Source: a virus. Taken from it: 64,000 nucleotides of DNA. The stretch lies in IMG/VR virus record IMGVR_UViG_3300025502_000011. One strand, given 5' to 3'. The notes under the pieces were generated by a model, which was not told the origin of the DNA, made no database searches, and saw only the letters and a program-made list of their open reading frames with translations. The stretch's first letter is position 1; each line of letters opens with the position of its first letter. The translations under genes were made by a program, and so were the position numbers. This document shows, piece after piece, positions 1 through 26,842 of the stretch.

Positions 1-1003
1 TTTTTAAAGTTGCTCGTTCTTCTTCCGCGTACTTCTTTAATTCTTCATGAAGTTTTTTTGCATCTCCAGTAACATCTTCCGTATATGCTTCAAACACTTC
101 ATACTGCAGAGCTTGAATATTTTCTATTGAATTGATTTCGACCCAACCCTCTTCGCTGTTAAACCTGTCAATCAAAGGATTGGAAACCAGTTTCACCATC
201 AGCTTCTCTTTGCGTGCATAAGCACTGCTTCGACTGATGTCCAACGTAAGAAGCTTTTCTAAAAATACAGAAACTAATAAACGAACCTGGTCATCTGTGA
301 ATTTGAATCCACGCTCAGCAATGTTTACAGAACTTCCTCTCATTTGGAAAAATCCAAGCTCATTATCAAATGAGCCAAAGTGAATGTCGGCGTACTTTTT
401 GAATAAATCAAAATGGTCGGGATTAAAACCATAACGTCCCATGATTTCGTCACAAGAGTAAAACTGAAGCTCTTTCAGGTTTATAGCACCTTGAGATGAA
501 TACTTAATCTTCCCAATTGTTTCTTTTTTGTAGATAGAATTATCACTTTTTTCTTCGTCTGCTTCATAGCTGATTTTCTCACCAGACTTTGAATGGAATT
601 CGAGACGCGAAAGAGCATCGCACGTTTGTTCGGCAGCTACTAGTGTAATGGCTCCTTTTCTTTTTAACGTATCGTTTTTAATGGCATGCAAGTGCCCATT
701 AAGAATGCTTTCTGGATGGGCAAGGTTTGCATAAAGTAAATCTTTATTGTGTGTAAGCTTTGGTGTTTGAGACACTTTATCATACATCGCATGCTTCATG
801 CAGGTAGGCGAAATAACTAATTTGTAACGAGGCTCTTTTCCATCGTTGTAAATGTTTCTCTTTGCATACATTACGTTGCTATGGTATGATTTTAAGAAAG
901 GGAATTTTTCTCCAATATGGAACCGTTGCTCATTGCTATCGTAATTAACAACGCCATTGCCTTCAATTTCAATTTTAAAAAGAATTGACTTTACTTTGCT
1001 CAT
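1..1003 (-). CDS. cas7: Cas7-like (DevR/Cst2-type) protein, runs off the left edge
   Basis: Own translation: open from ATG 1003 to the edge, MSKVKSILFKIEIEGNGVVNYDS...ISPTCMKHAM...KRKGAITL...KKETIG. These resemble DevR-type Cas7 motifs, and the gene lies directly downstream of cas3. Missing from the ORF track. Confidence 0.6.
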   Translation of the reverse strand, partial: MSKVKSILFKIEIEGNGVVNYDSNEQRFHIGEKFPFLKSYHSNVMYAKRNIYNDGKEPRYKLVISPTCMKHAMYDKVSQTPKLTHNKDLLYANLAHPESILNGHLHAIKNDTLKRKGAITLVAAEQTCDALSRLEFHSKSGEKISYEADEEKSDNSIYKKETIGKIKYSSQGAINLKELQFYSCDEIMGRYGFNPDHFDLFKKYADIHFGSFDNELGFFQMRGSSVNIAERGFKFTDDQVRLLVSVFLEKLLTLDISRSSAYARKEKLMVKLVSNPLIDRFNSEEGWVEINSIENIQALQYEVFEAYTEDVTGDAKKLHEELKKYAEEERATLK

Positions 1004-14062: not shown

Positions 14063-14134
14063 AGGGGCGTAGGGGGTTCGAACCCCTGACGTACAGGGTT
14101 AAAGCCTGATGTTCTACCTCTGAACTAACGCCCC
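14063..14134 (-). tRNA. tRNA with anticodon UUA (ochre suppressor)
   Basis: GGGGCGT-TA-GTTC AGAGGTA GAAC-A-TCAGG CTTTAAC CCTGT-ACGTC-AGGGG TTCGAAC CCCCT-ACGCCCC-T; canonical cloverleaf with a 7-nt anticodon loop. Confidence 0.88.
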
Positions 14135-15510: not shown

Positions 15511-16019
15511 TTCTTGATTCGGATTATAGCTGAGGGTACAGTTTTGTAATCCTCAACAAATGAATAATCTGGGACCATTGTCACGGAGTAGTTCTTATCT
15601 TGAAGCCACTCACGGAATTCTTTGTGCAGTTAAGTCTCTCCAACCATCCAAAAAGGAGATGTTAAGCTTGAGATTGTTCCGCCTGGTGCAAGTTGGTCAT
15701 ACATGTGCATGATGTGTTTGCAATCGACATTGTCTCGAAAGTTAGGACAGGCAATGACGTAATCATATGGTGTCTGGGCTTCGAATCGGAAGAAGTCTGA
15801 GCCAACCAACTCATATTCTTTTTCTTTCAGTGTGACTCGGCATTCTTGATTAAGTTCTACACAGTCAATTTTACACTGTTGGAATTTTTCTTGAACCCCG
15901 TCCGCCAATACTCCTGTGCCTGCAGATGGTTCTAGTATTCTCGCTCCAGGCTTCGGGTTTAATCTCTCACATAAAGCATCAATCACCACTTGGGGTGTAA
16001 TTCTGTTTGTCTCTACCAT
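15507..16019 (-). CDS. SAM-dependent methyltransferase with an internal in-frame TAA (15630-15632)
   Basis: ILEPSAGTG, VELN, ACPNF; past the TAA the frame continues LHKEFREWL...VPDYSFVED..TVPSAIIRIKK to a TGA overlapping the next ATG. Confidence 0.8.
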
Positions 16020-16041
16020 AGCTTTCGTTTTTTTTATTGTT

Positions 16042-16132
16042 TGGTGAACGGAATAGGAATCGAACCTACAACTTTTCTTATGGCCGCTAAGCCATCTAGT
16101 TTTGCGCCTTCCATCCTTTTAAGTACTCGTTC
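16042..16132 (-). tRNA. Degenerate tRNA-like gene with encoded CCA
   Basis: T-arm GTAGG TTCGATT CCTAT, acceptor GAACGAG/TCCGTTC, ACCA end; no canonical anticodon arm could be resolved. Confidence 0.4.
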
Positions 16133-16173
16133 GAACATTTCCTTAAAAATCTTGGTGCAATCCGCCCATGTTG

Positions 16174-16225
16174 TGGCGTGGGGAGAAACGAATCTCACGC
16201 GAATCTTCTTTCAGATTCTCACGCC
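16174..16225 (-). ncRNA. Mini tRNA-like RNA, family B copy 1
   Basis: GGCGTG-AGAATCT gaaaga AGATTCGC-GTGAGA TTCGTT TCTCCC-CACGCC-A. Confidence 0.65.
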
Positions 16226-16285
16226 ATGTGGGGGAAGTTGTTTATGAGAACAGCGCCTCCCCAAGCATCTCACTGCTCATTATAA

Positions 16286-16452
16286 TGGTCCCGCGAGAGG
16301 GTTCTGCCCCCCATCATTTCTTCAACATCAACTACTAACTCACTCTTGTGGCCACGCAAGTGAGTTTTTGTGTTTGCATCCCGAACTGAGTCCTTTCGGT
16401 TCGTCTTCCACATTATCAGTGTGGTGCTTTAACATATCTAAGCTATCGCAGG
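16286..16452 (-). tRNA. tRNA-Ile(GAU) with a ~90-nt insertion in the variable region
   Basis: CCTGCGA/TCGCGGG acceptor plus ACCA, intact CCACA CTGATAA TGTGG arm, non-canonical T-loop (GCAGAA). Confidence 0.65.
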
Positions 16453-16458
16453 AAATTG

Positions 16459-16601
16459 TCCTGGAGGAAGGGCTCGAACCCCCGACCCCCACCGTTCGAT
16501 TCCAATTCTCTACTTCACAACCCTTGTGGCCACGCAGGTTGCGTTTCAATCCTTTTCCTCATTTATCAGGGTGGTGCTCTAACCAACTGAGCTACTCCAG
16601 G
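16459..16601 (-). tRNA. tRNA-Ile(GAU) with a 69-nt insertion at position 37/38
   Basis: CCTGGAG/CTCCAGG acceptor and canonical D and T arms; removing 16495-16563 restores CCACC CTGATAC GGTGG. Confidence 0.8.
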
Positions 16602-16605
16602 AAGT

Positions 16606-16650
16606 GCCGCTAACAGGAATCTCACCTATTCTAGTGCTAATGCAAGCGGC
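16606..16650 (-). ncRNA. Mini tRNA-like RNA, family A copy 1
   Basis: GCCGCT-TGCATTAGCACTAG-AATAGG TGAGATT CCTGTT-AGCGGC. Confidence 0.75.
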
Positions 16651-16651
16651 G

Positions 16652-16731
16652 TGGTGGTGAGGGAAGGACTTGAACCTTCGACCTCCAGGGTTTTAAAGCC
16701 TGGTGCTCTGAACCAACTGAGCTACCTCACC
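16652..16731 (-). tRNA. tRNA with a 9-nt anticodon loop (CUUUAAAAC)
   Basis: GGTGAGG/CCTCACC-A-CCA; CCAGG CTTTAAAAC CCTGG; canonical D and T arms. Confidence 0.8.
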
Positions 16732-16735
16732 AAGA

Positions 16736-16780
16736 GGCCCCAGGAAGACTTTCTCTTCCTCTAGTGCTAATGCAGGGGCC
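16736..16780 (-). ncRNA. Mini tRNA-like RNA, family A copy 2
   Basis: GGCCCC-TGCATTAGCACTAG-AGGAAG AGAAAGT CTTCCT-GGGGCC. Confidence 0.75.
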
Positions 16781-16781
16781 G

Positions 16782-16835
16782 TGGTGGCGTGGGAAGAAAC
16801 GAATCTCCCGCGAATCCCTAATGGACTCTCACGCC
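16782..16835 (-). ncRNA. Mini tRNA-like RNA, family B copy 2 (CCA encoded)
   Basis: GGCGTG-AGAGTCC atta GGGATTCGC-GGGAGA TTCGTT TCTTCC-CACGCC-ACCA. Confidence 0.7.
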
Positions 16836-16871
16836 TTTTTTAAATTCCAACACGTCAATGAACTTTTGTTG

Positions 16872-16945
16872 TGACAGGAGAAAGATTCGAACTCTCGTCC
16901 CCAGGTTTTTAAGGCCTGGTGCTCTAACCGCTGAGCTATCCCGTC
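16872..16945 (-). tRNA. tRNA with a 9-nt anticodon loop (CCUUAAAAA)
   Basis: GACGGGA/TCCTGTC-A; CCAGG CCTTAAAAA CCTGG; T-arm GAGAG TTCGAAT CTTTC. Confidence 0.8.
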
Positions 16946-16994
16946 TGGTGGCGGATTCAGGACTTTAACCTGAACTGGTGCTTATGCATCCGCC
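16946..16994 (-). ncRNA. Mini tRNA-like RNA, family A copy 3 (CCA encoded)
   Basis: GGCGGA-TGCATAAGCACCAG-TTCAGG TTAAAGT CCTGAA-TCCGCC-ACCA; its CCA abuts G1 of the next tRNA. Confidence 0.8.
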
Positions 16995-16998
16995 GTAG

Positions 16999-17045
16999 TG
17001 GTGCGGGGACAATCGAATGTCCCATGAGCCAAAAGCTCTCGCACC
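16999..17045 (-). ncRNA. Mini tRNA-like RNA, family B copy 3
   Basis: GGTGCG-AGAGC ttttg GCTCAT-GGGACA TTCGAT TGTCCC-CGCACC-A. Confidence 0.7.
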
Positions 17046-17066
17046 GTGATATGGAAACCTGCATCA

Positions 17067-17486
17067 TCATGCGGCTTCTTTACAATTACAACTCTTGAGA
17101 GTTGGTTGATTCGTAAATTCTTTGAAAGCAAGTGGTAGACTAGATAACCAACGGGCAGATTCTTTCCCTGGTTCTACGGTAATAGACGTGAACTGGTTGT
17201 CGAGGTCAGGCTCCTGGAAGGAACTGAAATTAATACCTTTTTGCGTGAGTTTGTCTCGGAGCTCGATGAGTTCTTGCTCGTCTTTGACTGATAAGAATCC
17301 TAAATATGGATTCGATAACCATTTTTCATAAATGGCTGTGTATTCTTGATTGAATACGTGGAATGAATGCATTCCTTGAGTTGCCTGCGCTCCAGGAGCG
17401 AGGTCTCGTCTTACGACGATGTAAAGCTTTAAGTTTTTCTTCTCTGTAGAAGGGTGTACTTACTGGTTGTCTAATGCTTTTTTCAT
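17067..17486 (-). CDS. Peptidyl-tRNA hydrolase II (PTH2)-like protein with an in-frame TAA at codon 9
   Basis: MKKALDNQ*VHPSTEKKNLKLYIVVRRDLAPGAQATQGMH...LSVKDEQEL...FQEPDLDNQFTSITV; ends TGA TGA. Confidence 0.8.
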
Positions 17487-20601: not shown

Positions 20602-22122
20602 TTATTCCTTAGTTGCAAGCTCAGCAAAATCAACATAATTGTTGATAGTGTTGATAAGCGCTCTTTTGTCGACTTCTAGATTGTCAATGACATCAAAAAT
20701 CTTTTCAGAGAATCCTCTTAGCGCGAATACGTTCTTCTCTGGGAACTGCATGCTTCCGCTTGCAGCCAAGTTGAACTCGTAAACTTTACAGTCCTGAGCA
20801 CCGTACTTCTTCTTGTACGCTGCAAACTGAGTTTTTGGAGTATTGTACTCCATCCACGCTTGCATGTCCGAGAAGATGAATACACGGTCGTATTTCGCCT
20901 TCATCTTAACGAAGATGTCTTGGAAGTTCGTTCCGTGACCAACCCTGTACTTGCCAACGTTGCCGTAGCCTTGGTTTGTATCAACAATCCAGTTTGCCAT
21001 ACCCATTACTGAGTCATTCACGTTAACTGGAAGGTACATTGCGTGTGTTCCAAACGACATTACATCAGCATCACTAGCCTTGGCCATCATGGCTCCAAAT
21101 AGAGCTGCCACTTTATTCCTGTAAGTTTTACCTCCAGCAATTGGGCAATCCATAGAACCTGACAGGTCAATTACGACTGCAGTGTTTCCATCAAACTTTG
21201 GAATGTTAGAACAAGCTAGGTCTACGGCGGTGTTAAGCGCTCTTTGAACTTTCTTAGACTTTGTTCCAGTCAACACTGTAATCTCGTCGAGTGCAGTGAT
21301 GTATCTGAATGGAAGAATCAGTGACTTCTTAATTCTTGCCTCTGTAGTCAACAGCTCGCATGCCTTGTTAAGAACCTCGTCAGAAGCATCTTGGATGATG
21401 TTTCTAAGGTTTCTTAGAAGAGCAAACTGTCCAATCTTACCTGACATAACCAAGTCAGACCAAGCCTCAGCTTTGTTTGCGGCTTTCTCCTCAGAGGTCT
21501 TCGCTCCCTGGCCAGCTGCGGACAGCTTAGACTCGAAAGTGTTTTCACTCTTTAGGGTTCCAGCAACAAGCTCGGCAAGTGCCTTCTCGTTTCTAGCCGT
21601 TCCTTTTGGACGAACCAAGTTTACAACGTCAACAAGCGATACTTCATTCTTGTCTCCTCTGTACTTGGCAAGCTGGTATGCATCGAACTTTCCGAAAGCT
21701 TTCTTGAAACCTTTCTTTAGCGCGTTTGGCAAAGATGCTTTCTTACCCTCTCTACCGAAGTAGTAGGACATAATCTCAGTCATGTCGTCTGGACGACGTA
21801 CAATAGCTGCGTAAAACTCTTTAGCCCAGGCCTTACCTGAGGCGTGCTTAGCGATTTCACCCGCAAGTACGTGGGTGATAGAACGCATTCCAAACTCGTT
21901 ACGGGCATAGACAGCCGCCTTTGCTGCGAACTCTGGGTCCACTTTGCTAAGAACGGATGTCAACTCCTTTATTTGGTCTCCTGCCTTCGAATAGAAGTCA
22001 TCAGACACAAACGAGTTCAACAGAATCGTCACAAGCTCTAACTCTGGAGTCGACTTATAAGCCTCTCCTCCCGCTTTGTTGGTAGTCATTTCTACCTTTG
22101 ATTTTTCGTTAAATTTTGACAT
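20602..22122 (-). CDS. Ro60/TROVE-domain RNA-binding protein
   Basis: TTNKAGGEAY, FAAKAAVYAR.EFGMRS, FDAYQLAKY, FALLRNLRNI, LPFRY..A and vWA IDLSGSM motifs; likely start MSKFNEK. Confidence 0.93.
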   Translation of the reverse strand: MSKFNEKSKVEMTTNKAGGEAYKSTPELELVTILLNSFVSDDFYSKAGDQIKELTSVLSKVDPEFAAKAAVYARNEFGMRSITHVLAGEIAKHASGKAWAKEFYAAIVRRPDDMTEIMSYYFGREGKKASLPNALKKGFKKAFGKFDAYQLAKYRGDKNEVSLVDVVNLVRPKGTARNEKALAELVAGTLKSENTFESKLSAAGQGAKTSEEKAANKAEAWSDLVMSGKIGQFALLRNLRNIIQDASDEVLNKACELLTTEARIKKSLILPFRYITALDEITVLTGTKSKKVQRALNTAVDLACSNIPKFDGNTAVVIDLSGSMDCPIAGGKTYRNKVAALFGAMMAKASDADVMSFGTHAMYLPVNVNDSVMGMANWIVDTNQGYGNVGKYRVGHGTNFQDIFVKMKAKYDRVFIFSDMQAWMEYNTPKTQFAAYKKKYGAQDCKVYEFNLAASGSMQFPEKNVFALRGFSEKIFDVIDNLEVDKRALINTINNYVDFAELATKE

Positions 22123-22226
22123 CTCGTCGTTGTTTATAATTGTTGTTATTCTATTAATTCTTTGTTTTTGGCGCATAAAAAAAAAGCACCACATCTTTGC
22201 AGAGGGTGCTTTTTCGAAAAATATAA

Positions 22227-22306
22227 TGCCTTGGTCGGGTAATCCTGGAGAGAGTGGTTTTTCTATTTGTAGTTGAAGTAACTCATCTCCTTAACACCGT
22301 AAGGCA
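22227..22306 (-). ncRNA. Candidate Ro-associated (Y-like) RNA 1
   Basis: Ends pair (TGCCTT/AAGGCA; GGAGA/TCTCC) around GAGTTACTTCAACT. Confidence 0.55.
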
Positions 22307-22317
22307 AATAACTGTTC

Positions 22318-22571
22318 GAGGTAAAATAGAGGGGGGTGATAAGGTTGAAAGTTCTTTCTCTTTCGGTCATACGGTCTACCGTAATCGTGATTGTACTGTT
22401 CCAATCCGTCACCAGCTCATTAATGGCTGAAAATCCAAGTCTATCCTTGGTGTCTGGGTTTCTGTTTATGGTCTTTTCGAAACGGTCTTTCGACTATTCC
22501 AAAAAAGCCTGTTTGCTTGTTTGTTTATAGTTGAAGTAACCCCTAGGAAACGTCAAAAACGTTCACACCTC
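22318..22571 (-). ncRNA. Candidate Ro-associated (Y-like) RNA 2 with a multi-hairpin insert
   Basis: GAGGTGTGAA/TTTTACCTC closing stem, GGGTTACTTCAACT motif, at least five short internal hairpins. Confidence 0.5.
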
Positions 22572-22583
22572 TCAACACTCTGA

Positions 22584-22663
22584 AAGTCGTAAACTCTTGG
22601 TATATTTTGGAAAAAAATTGTTAAATGTGGAAATGAAGTAACTCTCTTTACCATTCTTACCTT
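22584..22663 (-). ncRNA. Candidate Ro-associated (Y-like) RNA 3
   Basis: GAGTTACTTCA motif; TGGTA/TACCA pairing. Confidence 0.45.
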
Positions 22664-26518: not shown

Positions 26519-26626
26519 TTTTTTATGTCTATTGTTATATTGTAGTACAACAATAGACATAAAATGGGACAAATTCAAATTTATTCATGATGCCCACAAA
26601 TCGTTTTTACGTTTGTGGGTAGTTCA

Positions 26627-26842
26627 CTATACCACCAGTGACGGCTTTAATTCAAAATAAATGCTGTCTTCTTCTTCAATTGTATGAAGGTCAAATTTTT
26701 TTTCAGGATAGTTCTTTCGAATTTCATCCCACAAAGAATCGAAACCTCTTCTTCTTAGCTCGTCTGCAGTTGCTTCAAAAACAATCTTCTTTACACTACG
26801 TGTTATAATTTTCATAACCACCTTTTTAAAAGTTATCACCAC
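26627..26842 (-). CDS. Hypothetical protein
   Basis: 71-aa ORF. Confidence 0.5.
   Translation of the reverse strand: MVITFKKVVMKIITRSVKKIVFEATADELRRRGFDSLWDEIRKNYPEKKFDLHTIEEEDSIYFELKPSLVV

Follow-up and report, generated by a model that had tools for sequence, protein, structure and literature searches.

Since 2019, phage tRNA genes have been described that carry short inserts which are not ribozymes and are still unexplained. Devoto et al. 2019 (PMC6784885) described highly conserved "enigmatic" introns in the tRNAs of Lak megaphages, some of them tRNA-shaped, and a 2026 survey (PMC13037316) found tRNA intronic sequences in 262 (77%) of alternative-code jumbo phage genomes. In archaea and eukaryotes, protein-spliced introns (BHB, EndA/Sen, RtcB or Trl1) occupy position 37/38, and group I introns, such as those of tRNA-Leu(UAA) and Azoarcus tRNA-Ile(CAU), interrupt the bacterial-type anticodon loop. 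The smallest group I introns are ~200 nt long. Stable non-tRNA RNAs are also known from inside a phage tRNA cluster, namely the species 1 and 2 RNAs of T4. A tRNA-like body with a long irregular helix at the position of the anticodon stem is found in YrlA (RF02553), a type of bacterial and phage Y RNA bound by Ro60/Rsr, which was described together with the Ro60-binding motif GNCGAAN0-1G in Chen et al. 2014 (PMC4201824); a CGAA motif of a phage Ro60 partner has been described as well (PMC12135203).

Here we analyzed a stretch of viral DNA of 64,000 nucleotides (the window), which belongs to a 141-kb IMG/VR virus record estimated to be ~64% complete. It contains a tRNA-Ile(GAU) gene with a 69-nt insert, designated gene C (Table 1). 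Despite the insert, gene C was recognized by cmscan as a tRNA of the Rfam family RF00005, isoleucine GAU type, with an alignment over the full model (1-71), a score of 49.9 bits (gathering 29) and a 70-nt insertion placed in the anticodon loop. ARAGORN, with introns allowed, likewise reported tRNA-Ile(GAU). The location of the insert at position 37/38, proposed in the initial annotation, was thus borne out by both the Rfam tRNA model and ARAGORN, as was the claim that its deletion yields a perfect tRNA-Ile(GAU). The deletion given there equals the ARAGORN insert shifted by one base; the shift reflects an ambiguous junction A and changes the restored loop from CUGAUAA to CUGAUAC. The acceptor, D and T arms are canonical, the discriminator is A, CCA is not encoded, and the anticodon GAU (16567..16565) lies within the 5' exon.

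Table 1. Features of the tRNA-like array and of associated loci (positions in the window unless stated otherwise)
Feature	Position	Strand	Basis or remark
Gene C, tRNA-Ile(GAU) including insert, 143 nt	16459..16601	minus	cmscan, ARAGORN -i, covariation
Gene C 5' exon: acceptor 5' strand, D arm, anticodon stem 5' strand, loop CUGAUAA	16563..16601	minus	ARAGORN
Insert, 69 nt	16494..16562	minus	ARAGORN boundaries; 16495-16563 equally possible
Gene C 3' exon: anticodon stem 3' strand, variable loop, T arm, acceptor 3' strand, A73	16459..16493	minus	
Insert helix P1	alignment columns 45-48 with 106-109		
Insert helix P2	alignment columns 52-53 with 101-102		
Insert helix P3	alignment columns 57-58 with 96-97		
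Insert helix P4	alignment columns 64-70 with 83-89		
Core module: UUGAAAC / AAGUAGA internal loop, 7-bp stem, 14-nt apical loop	16509..16549	minus	
7-bp stem of core module	16542..16536 with 16523..16517		
Palindrome GUGGCCAC, 8 nt, apical loop	16526..16533	minus	invariant in 12/12 copies
AUCG near insert 3' end	16497..16500	minus	two possible partners
Gene D, second tRNA-Ile(GAU)-like gene	16286..16452	minus	encoded ACCA, non-canonical D and T loops
Palindrome in gene D variable arm	16348-16355		
Upstream array part: mini-helices and two tRNA-like genes	16606..17045	minus	
tRNA-like genes with 9-nt anticodon loops	16945..16872 and 16731..16652	minus	loops CCUUAAAAA and CUUUAAAAC
Weak tRNA-like element, array downstream end	16045-16132	minus	23.3 bits; ~32 nt replacing the anticodon arm
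Conserved string GTTCATTGAC(G/A)T(G/A)TTGGAA	~16842-16863	minus	all relatives
Clean suppressor tRNA, anticodon UUA	14063-14134	minus	
Ro60 gene (TROVE and vWA)	20602-22194	minus	4 kb upstream of gene C
Three elements with GUUACUUCA, upstream of Ro60	22230-22660	minus	
RNA ligase gene (PHA02142 OB domain and RNA_ligase domain)	G000:C1:23528-24547 (L126 5528-6547)	minus	outside window
CRISPR array, ~22 repeats, 36-nt repeat, 66-nt period	G000:C1:27140-28548 (L126 9104-10562)		outside window
Cas6-like gene beside CRISPR array	G000:C1:28649-29365 (L126 10649-11365)		
Second short CRISPR array	~26615-26837 (G000:C1)		outside window

The exons of gene C are bacterial in type, since ordinary bacterial tRNA-Ile contigs from the same lake match 33 nt of the 5' exon (16563-16595) with 2-5 differences; these contigs run straight on into their own anticodon stem, without an insert. 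The insert is not an assembly artefact, because contigs of four sequencing runs (salt-lake metagenomes) showed zero differences over positions 16000-17400 and no insert-less form of gene C was present among these DNA contigs. A protein-coding function of the insert was also considered and rejected, as its open frames are not conserved.

Relatives of the locus were found through the Pth2-like protein encoded just upstream of the array, for which five relatives with 65-82% identity were detected; the same Pth2-like protein is also encoded on a 447-kb contig (446,956 bases). In the relatives' contigs (L118/L119, L121, L122, L123 and L124/L125), the non-coding array is always kept, with the Pth2-like gene on one side and a small gene resembling a methyltransferase on the other. 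The insert was neither absent nor random in these relatives, the outcome on which the initial annotation had staked its reading: all six distinct relatives found carry an insert of 67-69 nt at the same place in tRNA-Ile, far beyond chance, and in each of them (6/6) a perfect 7-nt loop results when the insert is taken out. The insert in gene C is real and under selection, and its sequence conservation clearly points to a functional feature. Mean pairwise identity was 0.91 for the 5' exon, 0.89 for the insert core, 0.80 for the 3' exon and 0.67 for the two junction-proximal flanks of the insert. Conservation of the core thus equals that of the exons and is lowest in the junction flanks; the conserved part is a distal module rather than the would-be splice sites.

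No relatives were obtained when viral contigs were searched with the Pth2-like protein, and the corresponding search with Ro60 detected only distant loci (L115, L116 and LR745206), all without the module. Exact-motif scans of IMG/VR (14-nt loop; loop-plus-flank patterns) returned only chance or coding matches, as did a single scan of metagenome contigs, so that no member outside this clade was found in the IMG/VR and metagenome-contig collections scanned, from which records close to that of the window may be missing. We found no paper describing this insert module.

The fold of the insert was assessed with an alignment of six sequences, in which the cloverleaf helices and four insert helices (P1-P4) were scored. 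Standard pairs occupied 99% of helix cells, as opposed to 91% in shuffled controls and 37-52% in slid registers, and 11 pairs showed changes on both sides. The cloverleaf helices of gene C were 100% paired, with compensatory changes, and the insert helices also stayed paired, three of the four having changed in both strands: five lineages have UGAN/NUCG as P1 and L124 has UAAG/CUUG, P2 occurs as AA/UU, AG/CU, GG/CU and GA/UC, and one pair of P4 varies between A-U, U-G and C-G. The 28 G-U cells of the alignment indicate that the fold is valid only for the minus-strand transcript. This pattern, drawn from six related sequences and thus suggestive rather than statistical proof, points to a rod of four helices. 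The family, although small, is varied enough to define the insert fold.

Within the rod, the core module has an identity of 0.89, with 30 of its 41 columns invariant. Its near-invariant strands UUGAAAC and AAGUAGA sit between P3 and P4, and the internal loop they form, with AGUA and GAA beside a U-G pair, fits the known consensus of the bulged-G (loop E, sarcin-ricin) motif. The apical loop reads UGC-GUGGCCAC-AAG. In an alignment of 12 module copies, AAA, GUGGCCACAA and AGUA were invariant, and pairing in the 7-bp stem was 92%, against 65% in shuffles, with changes on both sides in five of the seven pairs. A covariance model of the module detected exactly two copies per genome, with no further copies in the 141-kb record or at the distant Ro60 loci; the palindrome GUGGCCAC itself occurs twice in the 141 kb, against 0.67 occurrences expected.

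The second copy of the module is in gene D, which starts six bases downstream of gene C. Its anticodon arm is intact and the module lies in a variable-arm insert of ~90 nt. The gene D of two relatives (L118 and L121) has canonical D and T loops and a hairpin insert of 18-21 nt at position 37/38, whose 3' end, AUCA, is complementary to U33-U36. In the remaining four lineages gene D lacks the 37/38 insert and has conserved, non-canonical sequences in place of the D and T loops. An ordinary decoder form of either gene was present in no lineage, as gene C always carries the insert and gene D the large variable arm. The conserved part is therefore an RNA module that is portable, occurring within an anticodon loop as well as within a variable arm, rather than a splice signal at the junctions.

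The rest of the array is similarly unusual. Its upstream part contains several mini-helices of the acceptor/T-arm type and two tRNA-like genes with 9-nt anticodon loops, whose counterparts in L121, L122 and L123 have no anticodon arm at all. The 9-nt loops, mini-helices and lost anticodon arms imply that the array is selected for tRNA-like shape and not for decoding. All genes flanking it are on the minus strand. At its downstream end we noted a weak tRNA-like element (Table 1). A string conserved in all relatives, GTTCATTGAC(G/A)T(G/A)TTGGAA, may be an internal promoter, with no fit in a sigma-70 scan.

Compared with the Lak introns, gene C has much in common: a large phage with a probable Bacteroidota host, a suppressor tRNA, and a short, conserved, non-ribozyme insert in the anticodon loop. 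Such an insert is therefore not without precedent, contrary to what the initial annotation assumed, since Lak megaphages already have them (PMC6784885). However, the Lak inserts are described as tRNA-like and as present or absent between close relatives, whereas the gene C insert forms a rod that bears a hairpin module of the loop-E-like type. It is fixed in all relatives found, and its module recurs in the gene D variable arm. Neither cmscan nor ARAGORN detected a tRNA shape inside the gene C insert, which folds as a single rod.

To account for these observations, we consider it about an even bet that the insert is a retained domain on a non-decoding tRNA-Ile mimic, which works with the neighboring gene D. 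RNase P and 3' trimming would release from the array a 143-nt, tRNA-Ile-shaped non-coding RNA that keeps the canonical tRNA body and an intact 5' half of the anticodon loop (CUGAUAA). The rod, of ~25 bp-equivalents, would prolong the anticodon loop and exclude this RNA from ribosomal decoding. The base of the rod could pair either with the anticodon, which would thereby be masked, or with a decoy copy, UGAN, where the insert begins. The tip would present a platform of the loop-E-like type and, in a hairpin loop, the palindrome GUGGCCAC. Because the variable arm of gene D bears the same tip module, the C and D RNAs probably act together, either by kissing of their loops or by way of a common protein that may be dimeric. 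Something that recognizes tRNA-Ile could be their target, with the RNAs serving as mimic, decoy or docking scaffold. In this they would resemble the species 1 and 2 RNAs of T4, which are also small and structured, lie within a phage tRNA cluster, are processed along with it and have no known function; the gene C RNA differs in that its extra domain is carried by an entire tRNA-Ile. Retention of the insert would mean that phages build tRNA-Ile mimics with a docking domain, pointing to contacts between these mimics and tRNA-Ile-reading factors of the host or phage.

Several features favor a retained domain. The core of the insert is conserved like the exons, while a segment merely to be removed should show the opposite, and the same module is also present in the gene D variable arm, where splicing of the anticodon loop cannot apply. 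In addition, the insert helices covary and fold in a strand-specific manner (28 G-U cells), no lineage has C or D as a normal decoder, the surrounding elements of the array are not decoders, and no splicing signal or machinery was found (Rfam, BHB scan and enzymes in the 141-kb record).

On the other hand, some features argue against retention and are what a true intron would show, a reading that we hold as a tentative but serious alternative, clearly below even odds. A phage or host endonuclease would cut the base of the rod, perhaps measuring from the module or via the anticodon-insert helix, and the phage ATP-dependent RNA ligase or a host ligase would join the halves into a functional tRNA-Ile(GAU); once excised, the module may itself act. 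The insert is exactly at the site of protein-spliced introns, in the size range of such introns, and its removal leaves a perfect tRNA with a 7-nt loop. The tRNA body is canonical, with covarying stems and an invariant anticodon half-loop, as in a real decoder, and ARAGORN detected no other tRNA-Ile in the 141-kb record. The short insert of gene D varies in presence and size at the same site, which is intron-like. A predicted nick-sealing RNA ligase lies among tRNA genes of this phage, and the published enigmatic tRNA introns of Lak and other alternatively coded jumbo phages are unexplained (PMC6784885, PMC13037316). Two limits also weigh against retention, namely that the record is ~64% complete and that covariation was derived from six sequences only. 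If the insert is removed, viruses that infect bacteria would have an undescribed protein-dependent route of tRNA splicing.

Pairing between the insert and the anticodon bears on both readings. The initial annotation proposed that ATCG at the 3' end of the insert pairs with TGAT of the anticodon loop (U33-U36) in a relaxed helix-bulge geometry. This pairing does exist and is kept in 5/6 relatives, and the resulting 4-bp anticodon-insert helix, followed by a bulge of 2-3 nt, resembles that of eukaryal and archaeal pre-tRNAs. However, it is not a BHB in the register that leaves a 7-nt loop. With the BHB defined as two 3-nt bulges separated by a 4-bp helix, and the cut leaving a 7-nt loop, a script scan of the six relatives and the two short inserts found no such structure; the sole candidate at the loop, with U33-U36 in the central helix, had a shifted 2-bp outer helix, gave an 8-nt loop and was absent in L122 and L124. 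The same AUCG can also pair with UGAG (16561..16558) inside the insert. Both pairings are kept in 95.8% of cells, and the internal one has changes on both sides in L124 (UAAG/CUUG). The two pairings may alternate.

Processing by an endonuclease and an RtcB-type ligase, which the initial annotation thought necessary, gained no support from the search for enzymes that it proposed: EndA (PF01974) and RtcB (PF01139) were not found in the 141-kb record, with positive controls matched. Rnl1, Pnkp, RNase III, LigT, a CCA enzyme and an AAA_33-type kinase above cut-off were likewise not found in this record, nor was any end-healing enzyme. Enzymes missing from a record ~64% complete, with the host not identified, are weak evidence and prove little. 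The search did yield one RNA ligase, encoded in another tRNA cluster between tRNA-Arg, tRNA-Trp and tRNA-Ser genes and beside a SegE-like GIY-YIG endonuclease; by its PHA02142-type domains, it is predicted to be a nick-sealing, ATP-dependent enzyme. Other candidate nucleases were examined and rejected. Cas6 belongs to a CRISPR array with an unrelated repeat (a second, short array was also noted), and the neighboring genes gave matches in Pfam and PHROGs to a methyltransferase domain, a cupin-like protein, Acb3 and unknowns.

Thus, the insert resembles archaeal and eukaryal introns in position, size range and pairing with the anticodon, but it is found in a probable bacterial virus, without a BHB in the usable register and with no EndA or RtcB found in 141 kb. 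Conservation lowest at the junctions, the module shared with the variable arm of gene D, and a gene D that is a normal decoder in no lineage also argue against a protein-spliced intron. A variant of the intron reading is phage protein splicing unrelated to BHB and EndA, in which the module would mark the insert for a possibly dimeric endonuclease and the phage ligase would reseal the tRNA; we regard this as a doubtful possibility. Production of tRNA-Ile would then be under phage control.

Readings at the level of DNA, or as a product of decay, are a palindromic operator or terminator, a small mobile element inserted in two tRNA-Ile genes, or a dead tRNA gene, all of which we consider improbable. 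Although GTGGCCAC is a perfect palindrome, the plus-strand 16-nt core is terminator-like and the two copies are 178 bp apart, G-U pairs make the longer helices valid on the minus-strand transcript only, and the flanking genes are all on that strand. Moreover, there are no target-site duplications, no further copies were found in 141 kb or IMG/VR, and relatives with as little as 65% protein identity retain the element with compensatory changes. On the antisense (plus) strand, the palindromic core scores as a terminator-like hairpin at 16345-16360 and 16523-16538, and in the gene D copy a T run follows.

A different reading, and to us a very unlikely one, is that of a tRNA-embedded Y RNA, in which the insert would be a docking arm for the phage Ro60 and gene C a YrlA with normal tRNA strand order. 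The initial annotation had pointed to the Ro60 gene; its presence 4 kb away was confirmed, with TROVE and vWA domains, and the synteny is kept in L118, but the link to the insert is one of proximity only, as GUUACUUC, the motif of the Y-like RNAs of this Ro60 clade, is absent from the insert. Gene C shares with YrlA a tRNA-like body, a long irregular helix from the anticodon stem and a Ro60 gene nearby (PMC4201824), and RUCGA beside the 3' strand of its anticodon stem resembles the GNCGAA and CGAA motifs (PMC4201824, PMC12135203). However, gene C is not permuted, has a closed rod and an open acceptor, and lacks the GUUACUUC(G)AA motif. This RUCGA near the 3' end is the only resemblance of the insert to the Ro60-binding motif, which in this clade reads GGGUUACUUCGAA; CGAA occurs in 1/6 lineages, and L124 has UUGA. 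Docking of Ro60 on the gene C RNA is thus unsupported. The YrlA model (cut-off 69 bits) did not match gene C, its sole match in the array being one of 22.3 bits to a neighboring element, and eight genes lie between Ro60 and the array.

Better candidates for Y RNAs were found next to Ro60 itself. Its nearest relatives, L115 (797-903) and L116 (9803-9914), have YrlA-like matches (~31 bits) immediately upstream, both of which begin with GGGUUACUUCGAA. In the window, GUUACUUC occurs at three sites (22275, 22533 and 22635), all just upstream of Ro60 and none in the tRNA array. Three elements with GUUACUUCA are located there; the Rfam YrlA model gave no match to them at E<=1 over 22230-22660. Since the same motif starts the YrlA-like matches in L115 and L116, these elements are likely the Y RNAs of this phage.

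A small ribozyme that cleaves or splices itself is barely tenable: conserved unpaired purines flank the hairpin and AUGAUGA and GAAAC strings occur in some relatives, but none of 4227 Rfam families, including the described self-cleaving classes and group I/II introns, matched at E<=10 over 15900-17250, the insert is far shorter than even the smallest group I introns (~200 nt), stem II of a candidate hammerhead cannot form and the hairpin-ribozyme site has A here where G is needed. Readings as C/D-box, k-turn, hammerhead or hairpin ribozyme were rejected by eye, as their motifs are not kept across relatives. The initial annotation was therefore right that 69 nt is far too small for a group I or II intron; like group I introns, the insert interrupts a bacterial-type anticodon loop, but it has no match to Intron_gpI and no catalytic core.

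With regard to the source of this DNA, the primase/helicase, a helicase and Ro60 matched bacterial phages, the nearest being Flavobacteriia phages, crAss-like phages and a 635-kb uncultured phage. The record also encodes Cas6, a 22-repeat CRISPR array, ClpB, Lon and the anti-CBASS protein Acb3. A direct host search with the phage CRISPR repeat and Cas6 among genome contigs returned nothing. Taken together, the protein matches suggest that the source is a large bacteriophage, possibly with a Bacteroidota host; an archaeal host, which would make the intron ordinary, seems unlikely from the same matches.

A clean suppressor tRNA with anticodon UUA was also detected in the window. In two relatives, L124 (510-848) and L125, the Pth2-like gene aligns to the query in translation only when TGA is read as Trp, a pattern that hints at stop-codon recoding in this phage group.
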